Shown: in pieces, positions 27,462 through 39,701 of the stretch | Layout: every line of letters begins with the position of its first letter | Numbering within the stretch: the stretch's first letter is position 1 | Assembly: GCA_035285865.1 (NCBI GenBank) | Contig: JAYKHS010000003.1 | Location: 32,001-96,000, forward strand | Origin: Candidatus Sericytochromatia bacterium | GTDB lineage: Bacteria > Cyanobacteriota > Sericytochromatia > S15B-MN24 > VGJW01 | DNA length: 64,000 nucleotides | Direction: 5' to 3' | Program-made: the position numbers and the translations under genes | The notes under the pieces: generated by a model | The model's database searches: none | What the model was told of the DNA's origin: nothing | Seen by the model: the letters and a program-made list of their open reading frames with translations, nothing else

Positions 27462-27535
27462 GGCCTTAGTTTACCGCATCTTAACTGCTGCTTCAAGGTG
27501 TCGTGACACCCTCGCGGAGTGTGAAAGCCCGGCAC

Positions 27536-30500
27536 ATGGGGCAAAATCAGGACATGGTCTGCCCGGGCTGCCAGACGCCCCACGTCCCGACCGCTGCCTT
27601 CTGCGGGCACTGCGGACGTCGGTTGGCCACCTCAGGCCAGCACGCGCGACGGGCTGCCGACCAAAGCCCCCTCGCCCTGCTGGGCGTCCATTGGCCCGAT
27701 GCCTTCAGCATCCACGAGGCCGCGCACGTGCTGGGTCTCTGGGGCGGCACGATGGAGGCCTCGCACGACGGACGCATCCTGGCCTCGTTCGGACGCCCCA
27801 ACCCGCGGGAGGACGATCTGCGCCGTGCGGCCGCAGCCGCACTCGACCTCATGGCACGGCGCGCACGCTGCGAGATCGGCACGCCCAAAGCCTACCTGAT
27901 GCATGGCAGCCTGCCGCGTGCCGTCCCCTCGCTTGCCGAGACAGCGCTGGGTCAGGAAACGCTCCAAGGCCTCGAGCAGGTGCAGGACGGCCGAATCGGC
28001 ATGCCGGGCCGGACGGCGCGCCTCGTCGAGGCCAACTTCGACGCGGAGCAGCACGAGGGCGGGGACATGCACTGGCTGGAACCGGGCCAGCGCCGCATGG
28101 ACCCGGACCGTGTCGCGACCCTTCACGGGCGAGAAGCGGAACGCCGGAAGATCGAGGGCATGGCCACGGCGTGCCTCGCCGGCCACCCGCAGGTCTGGAT
28201 CGTCACCGGCCCGGAGGGCTCGGGAAAGTCCCGATTGGTCGTCGAAGCCCAGGCCCGGACCAATCGCGAGGCCCTGTCGCGGCTCATCTTGATCCGCGTG
28301 CACAGCCTGTCGCCCGACCGCAGCCACGGCCTGATTCGCGACCTTATTCACCAGATCATGGCCGATCCCGACACAGGCAACCCGTGGCCCTCGGCGGCGG
28401 CCTTCGGCAAGCAGTGGCCAGATGCCCACGCCGAGTTCCTGTGGCCCATCCTGCGCAATGTTTCCCAGTTGGACAGTCCCTCCCCCGAACAGGTCCAGCA
28501 AGTCCTGCCCCACCTCACCCGTTTCCTTTGGGAAGCCACGCGCCATCGCCCCCTGCTGCTCGCCGTGGACAACATCGAGTGGACGGACGCTCTCTCGTGG
28601 GGCTGGTGGCAACAATTCCTTCAAGCAACCCCGTCAGCGGGACATCGTCTCTGGATCATCCTGACCAGCACCCAGAGGTTCATCCTGCCGGAGACTGGAC
28701 TCGACCTCACGGTCACCAACCTGCAACCACTCTCGGAAGCCGAGTCCTTGGCTTGCCTCGCCAGTGCCCTTGGCCTGGACCCTGCCCAGGATTCCTGGCC
28801 CGCTCGGATCCTGCCCGTGCTGCGTGAAGGTGTGCGGCATGCCGGGGGCAACCCGCTGTTCCTGCGGGAATTGGCCTTCGATCTGCTCGCGACCGGCACG
28901 ATCTCATACGGCCCCGATGGCTGGCAGGCCCGAGAGACTCCAGCGGGGGAGTCGCTCGTGCCCGAGAGCCTCTCGGCCCTGCTGCGGGCCAAGGAAGCCA
29001 GGTTGCCTCCAGCTGCCCGGCAGACGCTGGCAACGGCCGCCGTCATCGGGACGCGCTTTGCGTGGGAGGACCTCGAGGATCTGGTCGGCCGTGAAGTCCT
29101 TCCCGACATCCTGCAGACGCTCGTGGACGCCGGACTGCTGGCAGTCGAAGGCAATGAGGTCTGCTTCCGGCAGGAAGCCCTGCGGACGCTGGCGGCCGCG
29201 GCACTGACCGAGGAGCAGCGGCAGACCATCCGGCGCCAGTTGGCCAATCGGCTGATGGCACGCCAACAGGAACAGATGGAGGAGCTGGACGGTCGCATCG
29301 CCGACCTGCTCGAAGAAGGCGGCGCCCTTTCCGAATCGGCGGAGTGGGCCCAGAAGGCCCTCGCTCTGGCCACGGGCCGACAGGAATGGGGCGAGGCACT
29401 GCGTCGCGCCCACCAGATCGTGCGCTTGGCCCGAACGCTGCCGGACACCTCACCGGAGGACCTCCAACGGGCCACGCGCGATGTTGCCACACTCGAACTG
29501 CAAGTGGGCAGCGTGGGAGAAGCCGAGCGCCTCTGGCAAGCGCTGCACGACATGGCTCCCATCGCGCAGCGTCACGAAGCCCGCACCCAGCTGGCCCGGA
29601 TAGCCGGTATCCGTGGCGACTTCGACCGAGCCCTCGCGTTCGCCGAGGAAGGCCTCGCGGTGGCCGAGTTGCTGGGGCAAGCCGGCAACCAGGTCAAGTT
29701 CCTCATCGAGCTGGGACAACTCGCTGTCCAGCAGGAGCGATGGGACGTGGCCGAGGCTGCCTGCAACAGGGTGGTCGGCCTGGTTCCCCCGGACAGCACC
29801 CATAAGGAGGCCGGAGACCTGCTGGTGCTGCGTGGCAAGCTCGACCTGCGCGCGGGACGCGGGGAGCCAGCGCTCGCAGCCGGCAGGGCGGCCCTCGACA
29901 TCTTCGAGTCGCAGCGGGAGCCCGACGCGATGGCCGAGGCCTTCCAACTCATTGCGCTGGCCCATCGGGCCACCGGGAATGCCACGCAGACCCAGAGAAG
30001 CCTGCGCCAAGCCATGCATGCGGCGCGGGACACGTCCGTCGTGCGTGAACTGGGGCTGTTGATGGCGAGCCTCGCGCTCGAGGAGGGTGACACCCCCACG
30101 GTGCTTGAACTTGATGACAACTGGCTTCTTGCTACCGGTTCGGGTCGCCTCGGACGAGAGCACCTGCTCTTGGGCACGGCGTGGCTCTTCGCTGGCATGC
30201 GTGATCCGATCCGCATCCATCTCGAGGGTCCTTTCGAGGGGCGTGCCGAGGATCTTGCGGTCCTGCACGCCATCCAGGCCATCGCCAAGGCGGAATCCGA
30301 CGACATGCCCGGCGCCACCCTCTCGGTGAGACACGCCCTCCAGAAGGGCACCGAGGTCGAAGGCCGTGCGCCCTTGGCTCGGGCGCTCGCTCTGGGTGCC
30401 GCCGGGCACGTCGCTTTCGTTGCCGGTGAGTACGAGCCCGCCGTGCGGCACCTGAGCGAAGCGCGGGCCGCTTTGCCGGCCCCCCCGCACCCGGTCTGGT

Positions 30501-30730
30501 CCCTGTGGTTCGACGTCCTCTACGGCATCAGTTTGCAGACACTCGGCAGCCCGCTGCCCTTCCTGCCCGAGGACCTTTCGGTTCGCGCCAGCCAACTTCG
30601 CGTGCCGCTGACGCTGGAACCCTACTGGACCATGCTGCGCGGGGGATTCGGAACGCAGGCCGAGGAATTCACGGAGTCGTTCACGGCTTGGGATGCTAGC
30701 ATGCCGGCATGGACGATCGGGAACGACTGA
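27536..30730 (+). CDS. Zinc ribbon, degenerate class III cyclase, AAA_16/STAND ATPase and TPR protein
   Basis: CPGC..FCGHCG; FGRPNPREDDLRRA; LHGREAE; GPEGSGKS; LAVDNIEWTD; GGNPLFLREL; helical TPR-like C-terminus. Confidence 0.85.
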   Translation: MGQNQDMVCPGCQTPHVPTAAFCGHCGRRLATSGQHARRAADQSPLALLGVHWPDAFSIHEAAHVLGLWGGTMEASHDGRILASFGRPNPREDDLRRAAAAALDLMARRARCEIGTPKAYLMHGSLPRAVPSLAETALGQETLQGLEQVQDGRIGMPGRTARLVEANFDAEQHEGGDMHWLEPGQRRMDPDRVATLHGREAERRKIEGMATACLAGHPQVWIVTGPEGSGKSRLVVEAQARTNREALSRLILIRVHSLSPDRSHGLIRDLIHQIMADPDTGNPWPSAAAFGKQWPDAHAEFLWPILRNVSQLDSPSPEQVQQVLPHLTRFLWEATRHRPLLLAVDNIEWTDALSWGWWQQFLQATPSAGHRLWIILTSTQRFILPETGLDLTVTNLQPLSEAESLACLASALGLDPAQDSWPARILPVLREGVRHAGGNPLFLRELAFDLLATGTISYGPDGWQARETPAGESLVPESLSALLRAKEARLPPAARQTLATAAVIGTRFAWEDLEDLVGREVLPDILQTLVDAGLLAVEGNEVCFRQEALRTLAAAALTEEQRQTIRRQLANRLMARQQEQMEELDGRIADLLEEGGALSESAEWAQKALALATGRQEWGEALRRAHQIVRLARTLPDTSPEDLQRATRDVATLELQVGSVGEAERLWQALHDMAPIAQRHEARTQLARIAGIRGDFDRALAFAEEGLAVAELLGQAGNQVKFLIELGQLAVQQERWDVAEAACNRVVGLVPPDSTHKEAGDLLVLRGKLDLRAGRGEPALAAGRAALDIFESQREPDAMAEAFQLIALAHRATGNATQTQRSLRQAMHAARDTSVVRELGLLMASLALEEGDTPTVLELDDNWLLATGSGRLGREHLLLGTAWLFAGMRDPIRIHLEGPFEGRAEDLAVLHAIQAIAKAESDDMPGATLSVRHALQKGTEVEGRAPLARALALGAAGHVAFVAGEYEPAVRHLSEARAALPAPPHPVWSLWFDVLYGISLQTLGSPLPFLPEDLSVRASQLRVPLTLEPYWTMLRGGFGTQAEEFTESFTAWDASMPAWTIGND

Positions 30731-31024: not shown

Positions 31025-31864
31025 GTGGCGCACGAGTCGGCAAATCGCCCCGGTATCCTGGAGACACTGTGGGGTGCCTCCAACAGGGCGACCTGGGGCA
31101 TCAGGGAACGACTGGCCTTCCGCAGGCGAGTCCGCGGGGTGCGTCCGGTCCCGAGAGGCGACCTGCTGCGGGGGCTGGCGGATCCCGAACGCGCGGCCCT
31201 TCATCTGGACACGTGGCTTTCCCCTCTGGGGATCGACGCCACCCTTCTCACCGCCGAGGCATCGTGGGCCCGAGACGCCTTGGACATTCTCGCGGCCCTC
31301 GAGGTGGCGATTGCCTGCCTGCCTGGCCCCTTGCCCGATCCCCTGCGCGTCGCGGACATCGGCGCCAAGACCTGGCATTACATCCGCGGAGTCCACGCGC
31401 TGCTCTCACGCGGGCCGGCCGGCCCGCGCCGCGTGGCCTTGACCGGCCTCGAGATCGACGCCTTCCGCGTCTACCGGGATTTCCACTCGCGCTGGGACTG
31501 GGCCCACTGGCATGCCGCCCCCTGCCCGGGCAGCAGGTACCTTGCGCTGGATGCCCTCGCGTTCCGTGAACCTCAGGATCTGGTACTGCTCTTCCTGCCG
31601 ATCCTGTTTCTCGAGGAACACCTCGACTGGGGGCTGTCGCTGGGACAGTACCGTCCGGAGGCACTTTTCCGGCACGCCCGCATCCTCGCCGGGGCCCGGG
31701 GTCACGTGGTGATGCTGAACTTCGCCTATGAGGAACCACTGCTGGACCGCCTGGCCGAGGCACAGGAAGTCCCGCCCTTGCTGCGAGTTCCGGCGCCCGC
31801 CGCCCTCGAGGAAGGCGAACTCCCGCGCATCTTGACGGTCTGGCCGGGCCTCCTCGCAACTTGA
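31025..31864 (+). CDS. Putative SAM-dependent methyltransferase-fold protein
   Basis: LRVADIGA motif I, LTGLEID motif II; RBS GAGG. Confidence 0.6.
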   Translation: MAHESANRPGILETLWGASNRATWGIRERLAFRRRVRGVRPVPRGDLLRGLADPERAALHLDTWLSPLGIDATLLTAEASWARDALDILAALEVAIACLPGPLPDPLRVADIGAKTWHYIRGVHALLSRGPAGPRRVALTGLEIDAFRVYRDFHSRWDWAHWHAAPCPGSRYLALDALAFREPQDLVLLFLPILFLEEHLDWGLSLGQYRPEALFRHARILAGARGHVVMLNFAYEEPLLDRLAEAQEVPPLLRVPAPAALEEGELPRILTVWPGLLAT

Positions 31865-31947: not shown

Positions 31948-32094
31948 ATGCAGCAATTCTGGATCACGGCCGAGTTGGACGACGCGACGACGCTGTCCCG
32001 CTGTTTCACCGCCAGCGACCGCGACACCGCAGTAGCCCGGATGATGGCCTACCTGGAGCTCGAGTTCGGGGCCGCGACCACGGCCGCCGGCTGA
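31948..32094 (+). CDS. Small hypothetical protein (48 aa)
   Basis: MQQFWITAELDD...; GC3-rich codons; 3' end overlaps the convergent gene. Confidence 0.35.
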   Translation: MQQFWITAELDDATTLSRCFTASDRDTAVARMMAYLELEFGAATTAAG

Positions 32095-32819
32095 AGAGGC
32101 CGTGTTCCCGGTCGCCTGTAGCGATCGTAGGAGCCGATGACGGCACGGATGTACCGCCCGTTTCGGTAGCGACCACGGCTGATGATGCCGCGGCGCCCCG
32201 CGTTGTAGTAGCTGAGCGCCATAGCGAGATCACCGCCGAACTCGCGCAACAGGGCTTTAAGGAAGTAGGTCCCGACACGGATGTTCTGCTCGGGATCGTA
32301 GAGGTCGATGTGGCGCATGCCGAGCTTGCGACGGAGTCCGCGGGCTGTCGCCGGCATGACCTGCATGAGGCCGACGGCCCCGACGGGACTGACGCAATTC
32401 GGGTCGAATGCGGACTCGATCTGGATGACGCCCGCAATCAGGCTCGCAGGAAGACCATGTTCGGAGGCGATCCGACGGATGAGACCGGCGTAGGGATAAT
32501 AAGCGCGCCGCCCCTCGCGCACGCCGAAAGCCCGGACCCTGGCGGCCTCATGAGCCCCGGGCATACGCGAGACTGCTGCCGTCCGATGGTGCGCAGCGAC
32601 ATGTATCCGCGGCATCGGCAATTGCACGTCTCGGCCAGCCGGGCCGACGGCCGCGCGTCCTGCAAGATTGGCGACCGCACCCAGCATGAGTGCCACGGCA
32701 CCGAAACCGAGCACGATCCGAGGTTGGATGGCCGTCGATTCCTCTGCAGCAGGGGACGGCGTCACTCCATCCGCCGGACGCACGAACACACCAAGTACCG
32801 GTTCAGTTGCTTCGGACAC
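32049..32819 (-). CDS. Lytic transglycosylase (SLT domain), membrane-anchored
   Basis: IQIESAFDP, GAVGLMQVMP, NIRVGTYFL, ALSYYNAG; N-terminal TM. Confidence 0.92.
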   Translation of the reverse strand: MSEATEPVLGVFVRPADGVTPSPAAEESTAIQPRIVLGFGAVALMLGAVANLAGRAAVGPAGRDVQLPMPRIHVAAHHRTAAVSRMPGAHEAARVRAFGVREGRRAYYPYAGLIRRIASEHGLPASLIAGVIQIESAFDPNCVSPVGAVGLMQVMPATARGLRRKLGMRHIDLYDPEQNIRVGTYFLKALLREFGGDLAMALSYYNAGRRGIISRGRYRNGRYIRAVIGSYDRYRRPGTRPLQPAAVVAAPNSSSR

Positions 32820-32953: not shown

Positions 32954-33970
32954 TCAAGGGATGGTAAAGCCCAGGACCGGACTGGCCCCCATCGTGCCAA
33001 CCCCTCCGGCCAGAATCATGGCGGCCGCAAAGAGGCCCACCGCGAGGCCATACCAGACCGGCCTGCCCGGCTCGATACGGAACCCTCGCCAGACGACCGT
33101 GAACTGGGCCACGGCGGTAACGGCGATGGCGACTGCAGGGGCCGGATGCTTGACGCCAAGCAGGATGGCCACGGCCACGAGCGAGGTCAGCAGCAGCATC
33201 GACCCGATGAGAAGGCCCATTTCCGGCCCCAGAAGCGCGGCGAGGGTGCGCAGGCCGACGCGTCGATGGGCGTCGACGTCGCCGAGGGTCCCAAGCGTGA
33301 AAAGCCCGACCGCCCCATAGGTGAAGCCCCCACCAAGCAGCAGGGCGCCCGTGACGGGCGGACCAAACAAAAGAATGCCGACCAGCCAAGGCATGAACAC
33401 GACGCAAAGGGCGTTGAAGAGCCCGCTGGCCCAAGTCTGCCGGCGCAGGGAGAGCGGTGGGGCATTCATGGCAAAGACCAGCGCGGAGGCTGCAAGCGTC
33501 GCGTAAAAGACGCCCGACCCATCGGTGCTGCCGACCCCGAAGCGCCCAGACCAGGAGAGCCCCAGACCGTGGTCCAGTAGGTGGGCGAAGAACAGCATCA
33601 GCATGCCCATCAACCCCATCTGGGCCACGAGGACGTTCAACGGCAGAGCCCCGGAAGGCAAAGGACGCTCGGGATGATTCACCGAGTCGAGGTCACGGTC
33701 GAAGATGGCGTTGACCACGCTGCCGAGCCCCGTGATCAACGGCCCGCAGAGCAGCGCGCCAAAAGCCAGACGCGTGGCCCCGACACCAGTCGCGGGCACT
33801 TGGCCGGTAGCCAGCGCTCCGGCCAGCATGGCGGCAATGGGGATGATCCACCGCTCCGGCCGTGCGGTACGAAGCGACAACTGCCACGGGGCCCGCTCGG
33901 GCTGCAGAGGCAGGGAGACGGTTTCGGCCCGAAGGACACGGAGCGTCGGGGGAGCGGCATGCAACTGCAT
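32954..33970 (-). CDS. UbiA-superfamily prenyltransferase, chlorophyll synthase (ChlG/BchG)-like
   Basis: LLCGPLITG..VNAIFDRDLDSVNHPERPLPSG, APPLSLRRQTW, MPWLVGILLFG, VDAHRRVGLRTL; many TM helices; start uncertain. Confidence 0.75.
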   Translation of the reverse strand: MQLHAAPPTLRVLRAETVSLPLQPERAPWQLSLRTARPERWIIPIAAMLAGALATGQVPATGVGATRLAFGALLCGPLITGLGSVVNAIFDRDLDSVNHPERPLPSGALPLNVLVAQMGLMGMLMLFFAHLLDHGLGLSWSGRFGVGSTDGSGVFYATLAASALVFAMNAPPLSLRRQTWASGLFNALCVVFMPWLVGILLFGPPVTGALLLGGGFTYGAVGLFTLGTLGDVDAHRRVGLRTLAALLGPEMGLLIGSMLLLTSLVAVAILLGVKHPAPAVAIAVTAVAQFTVVWRGFRIEPGRPVWYGLAVGLFAAAMILAGGVGTMGASPVLGFTIP

Positions 33971-34031
33971 CGCGGGGATGACCTGTCCTCGGAAGGCTGC
34001 GGGGGATACGCCCGGGACACTCCGGACTCCC

Positions 34032-34098
34032 TTTAATCTTCCGTTAATCTTAATCCAAAGTAAAGACCCGGGCGAGTATATTAACCCGCCCTTAACCG
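34032..34098 (+). promoter_or_regulatory. 11-bp-period TTAAYC direct repeats (Pho-box/OmpR-type operator candidate)
   Basis: TTAATC at 34033 and 34044; TTAACC at 34081 and 34092; AT-rich divergent intergenic region. Confidence 0.45.
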
Positions 34099-34140
34099 GC
34101 AAGCACAACACGCCCCCTGCGGCCTGGGTATGTGGCCCCT

Positions 34141-36291
34141 ATGTTCCGTGACCGGCCGCACTGGCGAGCATCCTTGCTGCTCACAGGCATGCTGCTGGCA
34201 GGGTGCCGGCAAGGCTTCGGGGATCTGGCGCGCCTTCCGGCTGCGGTGACGGGAACTCCGGCCGCGGAGACTGCACCCGCCGGGAACAGCACCTACATGC
34301 TGCCGGGTCGCGTCGTGGACGCATCAGGTCAGCCCATCCCGGGCGTACCCGTCAGAGCATGGCCTTCGGACGCGCTGCCACCCGGTAGCCGGGCCAGCCT
34401 CATCGCCAACGATGCAGCTGGCCTTGTCGCCCATGATGCCGCCGGACGAAGGGCGATCCAGCAGGCAACCGATCTCGTCGTTTCGGATGCAAGCGGCTCC
34501 TTCCGCCTTGACCTGCCCGCCGGCCGCTACAACCTCGAAGCCATCCGCTCCGCCACGGCCAAGGGCTGGCTGACGGACGTGGCCGTCGGCCCGGGCTCAA
34601 CGCCCCGGGAAGCCGTGTTGCGGACGTTGCAGACCGGCCGGGTAACGGGCAGGGTCCTTATGCCAGTCGCCTCCGGTGCCAGCAAGCCCCTCTTCGTCAC
34701 CGAAGCGGAAGTCCTGGTGGTCGGGTCGTCCTACAAGGCCCGGCCCGATGCGACGGGCCATTTCAGCATCGACGACGTGCCCGTCGGCATCCTGCACCTG
34801 CTGGTCTGGCATCCGGTCGTCGGAGCCTCGCGGCCTTGGGGAGCAACCCGGGAGGTACCGGCGGCCTCGGGTTCGCTCGTCCTCGACGATGTCCGACCTG
34901 CATTCGGCGGGGGCTGGGTCGCGATACCTGCGGAATCGCTGCCGAGGCCGACAGCATCACCCGGCGACAGCCCGATGCCGACGATCGCACCCACGCCGTC
35001 CCCCGCACCGACACCCGAGCCGACCCCGTCTCCCGCGGCAACGACCCCGCCATTGCCCAGCTCGTTGCCCACGGAGCAACCCTCAGCCTCGCCTGGTGCG
35101 ACAACCCTGCCCGAGCCGACGGCATCCCCTGCAACGACGCCTGCACCGACCGAAGTGCCCGCGCCATCACCGCAGCCATCGCCACAACCCTCGCCCGTGC
35201 CGTCGGAACCACCGACCCCGACTCCGACCGCATCGCCAGCTCCCCGGGGGCCCGGGATATTCTTCCTCGATGGCAGCCTGCCCTTTGCCCTGCAGCAAGC
35301 AGGCGTGGTGACCGTGGATGCCTTGACCCTCGGCGATCTTGGCGTGGATTCGGCCAGTCCGAGGCACTTCCTGGTCGGCGGCGTGACGCCTGAGGCCAAT
35401 GGTGGCCGGGAGGCCACGGACTCGGTCCTGATGATCTCGGAAAATGCCGCCGGCCGCATCGAGAACATCCAGGTCCTCCCGAGCAGGCTGCGCGTGCCGC
35501 GCCGCAGTGCTGCGGCGGTACTCGTCCCCCCCTACGTCTATGTCATCGGCGGCTTCGAGGTCGCTTCGCTGGACACACCGCTGGCCTCGGTCGAACGCGC
35601 ACGGCTGACGGCAGACGGCCTCGGGCCCTTCGAATCGATGGGTGAGCTTCTGGATGGTCCGCGTGCCCGCCACTCCGTGGTCCGCATCGGGGCGTGGCTG
35701 TTCAGCATCGGGGGCCGTACCGGTCCGCAGGACCAGAATTTCACTGCCGTGATCGCCCGCGCACCCATCGGGCCGGACGGTACGATCGGCTCCTTCCAAC
35801 CCCACGCCAGCTTGCTGCAACCGCGGGCCGCAGCCGCGCTCGTGGGGCCATGGGGCACCCAGTTCCAGCTCATTGGCGGCGTCGGGACGGACCGGAACGG
35901 TCAGGTCAGGCTCTCCAGTTCCGAGCGCCTCGCATTCACGGAGTATCAGTCAGCGGATCGACGCGTCGATCTCGGCAGCGATCCGGCCGGAGCACGTGGC
36001 GACGCCCTGCCGACGTCGCGCGCAAGGCTCGGGCACGCCCTGCTCGGGGACCGCCTCTACGTGTTCGGCGGTTCGACGGGCCAGGTAGGTACCGAGGTGC
36101 TGTCCGGCGTGCTCGAGGGCGATGCCCTCGGTCCCCTCAGGGAGTTCGCCGGCGCACGTCTTGCCGCGGGTGTCGATGACGCCGCCACGCTGGTGACGAG
36201 CGAGAACATCTATGTGCTCGGGGGATCCAATCCCTCCGGTTCCGCGGGCGTTTCCTTCATCCAGCGAGCCCCGATCCTCGACCTGCGCTGA
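34141..36291 (+). CDS. Lipoprotein: carboxypeptidase-regulatory-like domains, Pro/Thr linker, Kelch-type beta-propeller
   Basis: LLAGC lipobox; GRVVDASGQPIPG; PTP-rich linker; repeated YVIGG/FSIGG/YVFGG/YVLGG blades. Confidence 0.8.
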   Translation: MFRDRPHWRASLLLTGMLLAGCRQGFGDLARLPAAVTGTPAAETAPAGNSTYMLPGRVVDASGQPIPGVPVRAWPSDALPPGSRASLIANDAAGLVAHDAAGRRAIQQATDLVVSDASGSFRLDLPAGRYNLEAIRSATAKGWLTDVAVGPGSTPREAVLRTLQTGRVTGRVLMPVASGASKPLFVTEAEVLVVGSSYKARPDATGHFSIDDVPVGILHLLVWHPVVGASRPWGATREVPAASGSLVLDDVRPAFGGGWVAIPAESLPRPTASPGDSPMPTIAPTPSPAPTPEPTPSPAATTPPLPSSLPTEQPSASPGATTLPEPTASPATTPAPTEVPAPSPQPSPQPSPVPSEPPTPTPTASPAPRGPGIFFLDGSLPFALQQAGVVTVDALTLGDLGVDSASPRHFLVGGVTPEANGGREATDSVLMISENAAGRIENIQVLPSRLRVPRRSAAAVLVPPYVYVIGGFEVASLDTPLASVERARLTADGLGPFESMGELLDGPRARHSVVRIGAWLFSIGGRTGPQDQNFTAVIARAPIGPDGTIGSFQPHASLLQPRAAAALVGPWGTQFQLIGGVGTDRNGQVRLSSSERLAFTEYQSADRRVDLGSDPAGARGDALPTSRARLGHALLGDRLYVFGGSTGQVGTEVLSGVLEGDALGPLREFAGARLAAGVDDAATLVTSENIYVLGGSNPSGSAGVSFIQRAPILDLR

Positions 36292-36398
36292 ACACGGCCT
36301 GCGTGACAGCCATGTGACGCATGGACGCAGGGCATGGCCTAGAATGGGGCTTCCCGTTCCCGTCCCGGGCCGGATTGCAGAGGGAGACCCAGACGCCT

Positions 36399-38240
36399 AT
36401 GTGCGGCATCGTCGGCTATTGGGGGGCCAAACAGGCCTCGGACGTCCTCGTGGGTGGCCTGCGCCGCCTCGAGTACCGGGGCTACGACTCCGCCGGCGTG
36501 GCCGTTCTGGCGGACGGCGCCCTGCAAATCCGACGTGAGGTCGGCAAGCTTCAGGCGCTCGCCGATGGCCTCGGCCGCGCGCCGGTTCCCGGCACCGTGG
36601 GGATCGGCCACACCCGCTGGGCCACGCACGGGCGCCCGACGACCTACAACGCGCATCCCCACACGGATGCGACGGGCAAGCTGGTGGTGGTCCACAACGG
36701 CATCATCGAGAACTACATGGCCCTCAAGGAGCGTCTGCAGGGAGCTGGCCACACATTCCAATCGGATACCGACAGCGAGGTCCTCGCGCATCTGGTCGGC
36801 AGTTGCTATGCCGGCGACCTCCCCGCCGCCGTCCGCAAGGCCCTGAAACAGGTCGAAGGAACCTATGCCGCGGCCTTTCTCCATCAGGACCACCCCGACA
36901 CCATCGTGGGCGTCCGTCACGGTGCACCGCTCGTGGCCGGCGTCGGTGATGACGAATCCTTCCTCGCCTCGGACGTCAGCGCCCTGCTCGATCACACCCG
37001 CTCCGTGGTGTATCTGGACGACGGCAATCTCGTGCAAATCGGTCCCGAAGGCGTCAGGGTTTCCGATCTCGCAGGCCGCGACCTGCCGCTCGAGGTGCAT
37101 CGCGTCGACTGGAACCCTGCCGCTGCCGAGAAGGCCGGATTCGAGCACTTCATGCTCAAGGAAATCCACGAGCAGCCCGCCAGCTTGACGAACACGCTGG
37201 GCGGACGCCTCGACCAGGCCGCAAACCGCATCCATCTCGGAGACCAGCGCCTGACGGACGACGTCCTGAAGGGCATTCGCCGCGTCGTCGTCGTGGCCTG
37301 CGGGACGGCCTACTACGCGGGCCTCGTCGGCAAGTACGTCCTCGAGGAGCTCGCGCGACTGCCGGTCGAGGTCGACGTGGCCTCCGAGTTCCGCTATCGT
37401 CGCCCGGTTCTCGACCCCGAGACCCTCGTCATTGCCATCTCGCAGTCGGGCGAGACAGCCGATACGCTCGCTGCGCTGCGCGAGGCCAAGCGCCTCGGCT
37501 GTCCGACCCTCGGTGTCATCAACGCCATCGGTTCGACGATGGGCCGCGAGGTCGATGCCGTCCTCGCCCTGCAATCCGGACCAGAAATCAGCGTCGCCTC
37601 GACCAAGGCCTACACGAGCATGGTCGCCGCCATGCTCGTCCTGGGAGTCCACTTGGGTCAGGTCCGCGGCACGGTCGGGGATGCCGACGCCGCCGCGCTC
37701 ATCCGCGATCTCAAGCATCTGCCCGCACTGGTCACGAAGACCCTCGAGATGGCACCCCAGGTGCGCACCCTCGCCGAGGCCTTCGCGCTGTCGCAGAACT
37801 TCCTGTTCCTTGGACGCGGCATCAACTACCCCACGGCGCTGGAAGGCGCACTCAAGCTCAAGGAAATCTCCTACATCCACGCCGAGGCCTATGCGGCCGG
37901 CGAGATGAAGCACGGCCCCATAGCCCTCATCAACGAGGCGATGCCGGTCCTGGCCATCGCGACCCGAAGCGCGACCTACGACAAGATGGTCAGCAACATC
38001 CAGGAAGCCCGCTCGCGCAAGGGCTCCGCGATGGGTACCGTCATCGCCGTGGCCACCGAGGGCGACACCCAGATCGCCCACCACGTGGATCGGGTGCTGT
38101 ACGTGCCGGACAGCACCGAGCTGCTCTCGCCCATCATCAACGCAATCCCGCTGCAACTGCTGGCCTACGACATCGCGCGCATTCTGGGCAAGGACATTGA
38201 CCAACCCCGCAACCTGGCCAAGTCGGTGACCGTGGAATGA
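36399..38240 (+). CDS. glmS: Glutamine--fructose-6-phosphate aminotransferase
   Basis: [45 protein letters not shown]. Confidence 0.98.
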
Positions 38241-39220
38241 ACCTGCCGTCGCCGGAGTTCCGTCCGCGTCGCTTGCGGCGCACAGAAGCCCTGCGGCGCG
38301 CCGTCCGCGAGACGGTACTCGAGCCCCGGAACCTCATCCTGCCACTGTTCGCCTGTCCGGGCAGCGGCATCGCACGCGAGGTTCCCTCGATGCCCGGCGT
38401 CTTCCAGCAGAGCGTGGACAAGCTCCTCGAGACGGCGCATCGGGCCCGCGAGGCGCGACTCGGGGGCGTGATCCTGTTCGGCCTGCCCGAGTCCAAGGAC
38501 GCCACCGGCAGTTCGGCCTGGGACGAAGCCGGCCCGGTTCAGGAGGCGTTGCGGCGCATCAAGCGCGAGCTTCCGGACCTGCTGACGATCGCCGATGTCT
38601 GCATGTGCGAATACACCGACCACGGCCATTGCGGCATCCTCGAAGGCGACCATGTCGTCAACGACGCGTCGCTCGAACTGCTGGCACGAGCCTCCGTTAG
38701 CCTCGCGGATGCTGGCGCGGACATCCTGGCGCCCAGCGACATGATGGACGGACGCGTGGCGGCGATCCGTGCCGCGCTGGACGAAACCGGCCATGACGAC
38801 AAGCCGATCCTGTCCTACTCGGTCAAGTACGCTTCCGCCTTCTATGGCCCCTTCCGTGACGCTGCGGGCAGTGCCCCCCGTTCGGGCGACCGCCGGGGGT
38901 ACCAGATGGATCCTGCCAACGTGCGCGAAGCCCTCAAGGAGGCTGCCGAGGATCTGGCCGAAGGCGCCGACATGCTGATGGTCAAGCCGGCACTTGCCTA
39001 CATGGACATCATCCGGGCCGTGAAGGAGATGACGGATCGTCCGCTGGCTGCCTACAACGTCTCGGGCGAGTACGCGATGGTCAAGGCGGCCGCCCGTGCG
39101 GGCTGGATCGACGAACGGCGCATCGTTCTCGAGTTGCTGACCGGCCTGAAACGGGCAGGGGCCGACCTGATCCTGACCTACCACGCCCTCGACGCGGCGG
39201 CCTGGCTCGCCGAGGGCTGA
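38237..39220 (+). CDS. hemB: Porphobilinogen synthase (ALA dehydratase)
   Basis: [43 protein letters not shown]. Confidence 0.97.
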
Positions 39221-39221
39221 C

Positions 39222-39701
39222 TCACCAGCCCATCAGGCGGGCCCAGAGGTCGCTGGCCAGCTCGATCGAGCGCGGTGCACGCGGCGCGCGCAGCAAAGGC
39301 ATGCGGGCCTCGTCCGGCGTGCGATCTCCCTTGCGGTTGTTGCAGCGCAGGCAGGCCGCGACCAGGTTTTCCCAGGAATCGTCGCCCCCGCGAGAACGGG
39401 GCATGACGTGGTCGACCGTCAGGTCGCCGCCCTTCCGGCCACAATACTGACAGGCTTGCCGATCGCGCCGGAAGAGGGCCTGCCGGGAAGGTTTCAGGCT
39501 CTCGAAGGTGTAGCGGGCAACCACGCGGACAAGCAGGCGGATGGCATAGGGGACGCGGATCTCCGTCGATGGGGAACGAACCACGTCCTCCGTGTCGCGC
39601 ACCGAGACCGCACGGCCCTGGTAGAGCATCGTGATCGCCTTCTCGACCCCTACGGTGTAGAGCGGTTGGTAAGTGGTCGACAGGACGAGAACCTGCATCA
39701 C
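39222..39701 (-). CDS. HNH endonuclease
   Basis: RDRQACQYCG, TVDHVMPRSRGG, WENLVAACLRCNNRKG. Confidence 0.92.
   Translation of the reverse strand: MMQVLVLSTTYQPLYTVGVEKAITMLYQGRAVSVRDTEDVVRSPSTEIRVPYAIRLLVRVVARYTFESLKPSRQALFRRDRQACQYCGRKGGDLTVDHVMPRSRGGDDSWENLVAACLRCNNRKGDRTPDEARMPLLRAPRAPRSIELASDLWARLMGW

Follow-up and report, generated by a model that had tools for sequence, protein, structure and literature searches.

(Bacterio)chlorophyll synthase serves as a marker for tracing the history of phototrophs, and the main text of PMC11194577, which treats it in this way, places the basal divide between ChlG and BchG at the deepest split among these enzymes. Our point of reference is cyanobacterial ChlG (PDB 9sas and 9sau; TIGR02056), which has the nine-helix UbiA fold. 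In the text of bioRxiv 10.64898/2026.05.13.724888, 14 of 16 alanine variants of ChlG show 1% activity or less, the exceptions being Q301 and Q305, and N218, K221 and Y181 are modelled against chlorophyllide. We use the residue numbering of that preprint, with the cyanobacterial ChlG L026 as ruler, which matches at each of the 16 residues that the text names. Eleven of the residues considered here, N89, D93, D97, R104, Y159, K167, Y181, N218, D219, K221 and D226, are invariant in the 187 canonical synthases that we compared. The BchG and BchK enzymes (TIGR01476, PRK12392) of Chloroflexota, Chlorobia, Pseudomonadota, Vulcanimicrobiota and heliobacteria belong to the same protein family.

The window studied here, a stretch of 64,000 nucleotides from a Sericytochromatia metagenome-assembled genome (MAG), carries at 32954..33970 (-) a stop-free frame of 338 aa, present as a single copy in the genome, that encodes a UbiA-fold protein with eroded catalytic residues. 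A first-pass annotation made from the sequence alone had assigned this gene to the ChlG/BchG clade rather than to generic UbiA or DGGGP synthases, and our results confirm that by descent it belongs to the (bacterio)chlorophyll synthase family. The closest solved structure is chlorophyll a synthase (PDB 9sas, E 1e-18), with which the protein is collinear over residues 29-261, whereas DGGGP synthase 6m31 aligns over 50 residues (E 2e-5). Among the NCBIfam models, those of the synthases rank first (PRK07566 141 bits, TIGR01476 127, TIGR02056 90 and the BchK model PRK12392 70), and the DGGGP-synthase models and all other UbiA models give 40 bits or less. However, all synthase scores fall under their cut-offs, the curated values being 313 bits for PRK07566, 212 for TIGR01476 and 436 for TIGR02056, and the top scorer among nine scanned family members, with 197 bits (PRK07566) and 185 bits (TIGR01476), is also below them. 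An ESM Atlas feature search with the protein led to ChlG-named clusters at 0.95. Its AlphaFold2 model (pLDDT 70.8, pTM 0.76) has the UbiA helical fold with nine helices, and Foldseek matched this model to generic UbiA structures only (TM 0.54-0.60), its library giving no ChlG structure; the likeness to DGGGP synthase, MenA, CyoE and HPT is one of fold. All peptides quoted in the first-pass annotation are present in the translated frame, but one pair, AQ..AHLLD against TQ..AYGLD, adjoins an insertion specific to the host's own family and so is no cyanobacterial signature. For the prenylation of quinone and heme the host has paralogues of their own, one MenA-like and one CyoE-like, and the same types were classified in relatives. 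The genome also encodes, at G000:C7:38225-39469 (-), a further UbiA-like protein of the membrane, which has diverged very far (E 0.35 against the synthase profile).

The host belongs to a sister class of cyanobacteria, and those of its close relatives that carry names are MAGs of Candidatus Sericytochromatia and Tanganyikabacteria. Orthologues of the gene, one full-length copy each, occur in 17 of the 47 genomes of this class, all within three families of one order: 7/8 genomes of the host's family (f1), 9/10 of family f3 and 1/1 of family f4, against 0/8 in family f2 and 0/20 in other orders. Two profiles agree on this distribution, full-length copies matching the broad profile with E below 1e-94, and in the two genomes of f1 and f3 that miss the gene (G011 and G021) the contigs break at or inside glmS, the expected gene site. 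Four weak extra matches in the class were rejected as orthologues, three being classified as CyoE and one as MenA. No hidden, more eroded orthologue was found in f2 or the other orders in 17 stretches upstream of glmS (one of only 500 bases), and a metagenome scan with an f4-type alignment found no relative. In 401 genomes of another non-phototroph class (around G048), which we infer to be Vampirovibrionia, there was no ChlG-type match and one weak generic UbiA match. Two members carry NCBI record labels, as deposited, of 'Pantanalinema sp.' (P0024) and 'Bacteroidota bacterium' (P0223, a partial sequence).

The view that the host is not phototrophic is borne out by the gene searches. PsaA/B, the type II reaction centre (Photo_RC) and BchH were each found in 0/47 class genomes; BchB, CobN/Mg-chelatase, Hlip, PUCC and AcsF were not found in five genomes each, and ChlP and ChlM gave nothing over cut-off in five each, while a cyanobacterial control was positive in every one of these searches. 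The host's own assembly is 83% complete, and relatives that are 98-100% complete show the same absences. Unlike cyanobacterial ChlG, the gene thus lies in a host without the Hlip partner, a reaction centre or Mg-chelatase H, and unlike BchG and BchK it lies outside any photosynthesis cluster. The two outcomes that the first-pass annotation had named as speaking against its reading, a grouping with DGGGP synthase or other UbiA clades and a phototrophic host with a canonical chlG, were therefore not what we found. A misbinned contig from a contaminating phototroph was also rejected, given the fixed place of the gene beside the host glmS and a GC content of 67.4% against 66.9% for the genome.

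Sequence comparison of the active site was carried out with 51 family sequences, which are partly redundant, against the 187 canonical synthases. Across the family, Y159, Y181, N218, K221 and D90 are each retained in 0/51 members and D219 in 1/51. The remainder of the first aspartate-rich motif is better preserved, with N89 kept in 41/51, D93 in 47/51 (plus three with Glu), D97 in 17/51 and R104 in 20/51, although this motif is eroded further in families f3 and f4, and the N89 equivalent is Arg in f4 and in genus g13. K167 has changed to Arg in 49/51 members, and D226 is Asp in 15/51 and Glu in 30 more, so that 45/51 have one or the other. In the window protein the equivalents of K39, N89, D90, D93, D97, R104, Y159, K167, Y181, N218, D219, K221 and D226 are R37, N87, A88, D91, D95, R102, M168, R176, V190, G227, T228, G230 and H235, respectively. 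Its first aspartate-rich motif (N87-R102, 33665..33712 (-)) therefore keeps the N89, D93, D97 and R104 equivalents and has Ala for D90; the segment M168-V190 (33401..33469 (-)) has lost both catalytic tyrosines and carries the Lys-to-Arg change; and the second motif (G227-R236, 33263..33292 (-)) has G, T, G and H for N218, D219, K221 and D226. The Arg that follows the second motif is invariant in the family (51/51). The loss of motifs claimed by the first-pass annotation is thus real and larger than it had stated, with the correction that in the first motif the D90 equivalent alone is lost. This loss is not decisive, because D90 can be Glu or Ala in synthases whose core is intact in all other respects; of 79 metagenome synthases, 14 vary there alone. 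Judging from the alignment, the decisive losses are those of Y159, Y181, N218, D219, K221 and D226.

The acceptor side and both tyrosines are lost, and part of the diphosphate side is kept; because of this pattern the window protein is likely a pseudoenzyme, a non-catalytic membrane protein, its inactivity being predicted by analogy with the mutagenesis of its homologue. The loss of catalytic residues would be older than the split of f1, f3 and f4. The first-pass annotation had also suggested a tetrapyrrole-binding role. The data do not favour it: N218, K221 and Y181 are lost in 51/51 members, which suggests that the polar contacts to chlorophyllide are gone in the family, and the protein would more likely bind an anionic lipid or a partner protein. 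Three further segments set the family apart. A patch on helix 7 (33164..33229 (-)) is conserved in the family (E250 in 48/51; G252, T262 and I269 in 51/51) and not in canonical synthases, and is a candidate new interaction surface. At the N terminus lies a family-specific peptide of the MQL..P type (33947..33970 (-); Q in 46/51, L in 47/51, P in 47/51), which is modelled with low confidence and is probably disordered; a second match to this peptide in the host genome was discarded as a chance match in a shadow frame. The loop between helices 3 and 4 (33506..33577 (-)) contains an insertion that is specific to family f1 and is not the insertion of cyanobacterial ChlG, since this loop spans 24 residues in 13/51 members, 6 in 37 and 9 in one, against 13 in 44/44 cyanobacterial ChlG proteins. 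A short loop at this place, the ancestral state, is a feature in common with BchG and BchK, although most members lack the Phe found at the bacteriochlorophyll specificity gate of those enzymes.

The gene is kept under purifying selection. Its dN/dS is 0.053-0.173 over 11 within-genus pairs, and that of glmS is 0.047-0.146 over five pairs (Nei-Gojobori in both cases, with several dS values above 1). A pseudogene or a recent decay is rejected by these values together with the intact frames in 17 genomes. In 16 of the 17 genomes the gene is divergent from glmS at a distance of 0.2-4.2 kb, and in the 17th the contig stops some 440 bases upstream. In the window the conserved anchor of this locus, glmS-hemB, is at 36321..39220 (+), a gene for a lipoprotein-like protein with Kelch and carboxypeptidase-regulatory domains lies between (34132..36291 (+)), and an SLT lytic transglycosylase gene (32049..32819 (-)) is downstream, all as the first-pass annotation had described. 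Other genera, and one genome of the same genus, have no Kelch-type gene at this position. The transglycosylase is the downstream neighbour in f1 and most of f3 and follows the gene in 6/6 f1 and f3 loci by Pfam scan, but not in f4 or genus g13. The proximity of hemB is not specific to the gene, because glmS and hemB are adjacent in 8/8 f2 genomes, all of them without it, and hemB linkage is thereby weakened as a sign of a tetrapyrrole function. In two genera of different families a TIGR03492 lipid-A-disaccharide-synthase-related gene is located between the ChlG-like gene and glmS (L081:10182-11240 and L085:7756-8988; also L086 and L087).

Upstream of the gene an AT-rich element (34030..34100 (-)) resembles a sigma-70 promoter, with a -35-like hexamer, a 17-base spacer holding a short palindrome and a -10-like hexamer that is degenerate in the host genus. 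Inspection by eye shows a similar element at each of the 17 loci, and on this pattern it is likely a promoter or operator; a consensus scan gave a different, weaker site at 34075-34102. A similar AT-rich element apparently stands 5' of the transglycosylase in the downstream intergenic regions of L008-L010, hinting at a shared regulator. Other genes of the surroundings include a stand-alone HNH endonuclease convergent on hemB (39222-39701 (-)), in the same place in f1 and f3 loci; a 279-aa protein without Pfam or NCBIfam match (31025-31864 (+)), with apparent counterparts near the locus in f3 (L085:3621-4406 and L087:9167-9952); and a 1075-aa AAA ATPase/TPR protein (27503-30730 (+)) whose N-terminal region looks adenylate-cyclase-like by eye.

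The family is monophyletic with 100/100 support in every tree. References were cyanobacterial ChlG from genomes of the phylum, plasmid BchG, and named and unnamed proteins, the group labels of unnamed rows resting on their clustering with named ones. The careful trees contain seven slow family members and leave out the longest branches, among them that of the window protein, which nests in the family in quick trees. With five outgroup rows (one DGGGPS-like, three HPT-like and one other UbiA; MenA, CyoE and UbiA were set apart by HMM score only), the family falls inside the synthase ingroup with 99/99 support, in agreement with the first-pass annotation, and is weakly sister to the BchG clade (67/78), with the caveat that long branches in this tree converge on the outgroup. 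The ingroup tree with the best sampling (41 rows, LG+C20) joins it to the deepest division, that between ChlG and BchG, in 835 of 1000 bootstraps; the ChlG side (95/88) holds cyanobacteria, P0053, Chloroflexia ChlG-type proteins, heliobacteria and BchK, and the BchG side has 88/70. A sister group made up of cyanobacteria only does not figure among the ten most frequent attachments, which together account for 995 of the 1000 trees. AU tests reject no placement: p is 0.398 for a position basal to all synthases, 0.16 with heliobacteria, 0.115 with Chloroflexi BchG, and 0.095, 0.161, 0.112 and 0.201 with cyanobacteria. A sister position to cyanobacterial ChlG is thus disfavoured but not rejected, while a placement within cyanobacterial ChlG is excluded (100/100). 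Of 22 cyanobacteria-specific sites, none is common to two or more host families (four occur in one family), and the 7-residue insertion of cyanobacterial ChlG is absent. The specifically cyanobacterial affinity read by the first-pass annotation is therefore not supported, and a recent transfer from cyanobacteria is rejected on the same grounds. Mean identity is 25-28% to all groups (28% to BchG groups, 26% to cyanobacteria), and the side-diagnostic sites are mixed, with ChlG-side states at 44 (non-Phe), 182 (non-Glu), 185 (Pro), 246 and 259 and BchG-side states at as many (47, 49, 158, 211, 238 and 307). Denser sampling, with 58 dereplicated rows, revealed no intact kin. The donor or ancestor of the family would be a deep lineage, although a long branch drawn to the centre of a star-like tree may make the deep position artefactual. 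The first-pass annotation had listed a relic of photosynthetic ancestry, a pre-photosynthetic outgroup and a repurposed transfer as origins that would each bear on the origin of phototrophy in the cyanobacterial lineage; this bearing stands, but by the AU tests the gene tree does not separate the three.

Eroded copies occur elsewhere among BchG proteins. The P0092 group (L139:5659-7059 and L140:1-1125) is an eroded BchG outside a photosynthesis cluster that has lost Y181, N218, D219 and K221, a loss parallel to that of the window family, and its gene lies directly upstream of a gene for a DUF92 membrane protein, which we take to be of the phytyl-phosphate kinase family. The sister of L140 (support 99), L141, has an intact BchG followed by a geranylgeranyl-reductase-like gene, and P0083, another eroded BchG-like protein, groups inside proteobacterial BchG. 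Both L140 and P0083 are thus of independent origin, grouping with intact L141 and proteobacterial BchG, whereas the window family is nested in none of the BchG and BchK groups; a kinship with the P0092 group was rejected by the denser sampling.

The explanation that we favour, and to which we give about even credence, is that the protein is a ChlG/BchG-family pseudoenzyme which came by ancient transfer from deep unsampled phototrophs and is now a membrane scaffold or a lipid-phosphate-binding regulator. The common ancestor of f1, f3 and f4 would have acquired a still intact synthase whose source branched close to the division of ChlG from BchG. As the cell had no chlorophyllide, the residues on the acceptor side, those that stabilise the carbocation and the second Mg site would have decayed before the three families separated, leaving the nine-helix fold, several arginines of the cap and a single acidic residue, the D93 equivalent. 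The N-terminal peptide and the helix-7 patch would be new features that became fixed and that serve in docking a partner and perhaps in holding an anionic lipid of the prenyl-phosphate type. The process served might be envelope biogenesis, as the neighbouring glmS, lytic transglycosylase and lipid-A-disaccharide-synthase-related genes suggest; this is the weakest step, a tentative and rather doubtful one, and f4 and genus g13 have no transglycosylase next to the gene. As for the origin, the most economical history has one gain, in the common ancestor of f1, f3 and f4, because the gene is in 0/8 f2 genomes, 0/20 genomes of other orders and none of 401 genomes of the other class, and we regard a transfer of this kind as about evenly balanced. 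Within the order inheritance has been vertical, as the f1, f3 and f4 clades of the gene tree and the glmS-divergent place in 16/17 genomes show; f1 and f3 are clades in the GlmS tree as well. At least one loss may be needed even so, because the GlmS tree leaves the position of f2 among f1 and f3 without clear support. The family stands outside every crown group, which speaks against any close donor. Against the transfer, no donor was found and the AU tests reject no placement, and against inactivity, f1 still has the N89, D93, D97 and R104 equivalents.

A possible but less probable history is that the gene is a molecular fossil, a vertically inherited ChlG pseudoenzyme from a chlorophototrophic ancestor of Sericytochromatia and cyanobacteria, which this order kept in a non-catalytic role and the other non-phototroph lineages lost wholly along with photosynthesis. 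The standing of the host class as sister of cyanobacteria, the age of the family, the AU values for a cyanobacterial sister and the ChlG-side states all agree with this, and under it the non-phototroph lineages must have lost all other photosynthesis genes anyway; the text of PMC8047818 argues that these lineages lost photosynthesis, and that of PMC11194577 implies it. The bootstrap attachments, the missing cyanobacterial sites and loop insertion and the equally many BchG-side states weigh against it. It also requires separate losses in f2, in three other families of the class and in the other non-phototroph class, and no second relic accompanies the gene, whether Hlip, ChlP, PUCC, ChlM, AcsF or BchB in five genomes, or BchH and both reaction centres in 47. 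In three of five cyanobacteria psaC lies directly upstream of glmS, on the same strand at 150-420 bases (L220, L221 and L223, in genomes G051, G077 and G081), so that a photosynthesis gene occupies the corresponding place, a weak hint that the locus is old; however, psaC is not the same gene and points the other way, and each of the five genomes has chlG at a great distance from glmS.

It is improbable, in our judgement, that the family goes back to a UbiA enzyme which had branched away before the (bacterio)chlorophyll synthases arose and never had a part in photosynthesis. The attachment at the deepest split, the AU value of the basal position and the mixture of ChlG-side and BchG-side states would suit such a sister, but the best 150 matches among 1.84 billion representatives (39 of them classified) contain no intact non-phototroph member, none of the 51 family sequences is catalytically intact, the family is confined to one order, and the free outgroup tree puts it, with weak support, inside the synthase radiation. 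Slightly more improbable still is an enzyme of changed chemistry, which would use one Mg site and the arginines of the cap to bind a prenyl diphosphate that is transferred to a new acceptor or hydrolysed, since D or E at the D93 equivalent in 50/51, Arg for K167 in 49/51, D/E at D226 in 45/51, the N89, D97 and R104 retained in f1 and the strong selection on the gene are set against the family-wide loss of both catalytic tyrosines and D219, the sparse retention of D97 and R104, the Arg for N89 in f4 and g13 and the His at D226 in the window protein itself.

An eroded ChlG-like family in Sericytochromatia was not found in the literature that we searched, which consisted of freely available main texts: the main-text portions of PMC11194577, PMC8047818, PMC10156173, PMC5873394, PMC10151467 and PMC9066304 hold no mention of it, and in that of PMC11194577 the word 'Sericytochromatia' does not occur. 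Databases already label some members automatically as 'chlorophyll synthase' (P0008, P0027 and P0028), and such labels do not indicate phototrophy. A conserved, probably catalytically dead branch of (bacterio)chlorophyll synthase in non-photosynthetic Cyanobacteriota is thus real, and with it the UbiA superfamily gains a branch that is likely made up of pseudoenzymes. An order-wide, selected and deep-branching family member in Sericytochromatia is a direct and testable datum on the history of phototrophs: if the gene was inherited vertically, it would date phototrophy before the split of the classes, and if it was transferred, it would sample a phototroph lineage that is lost or unsampled.
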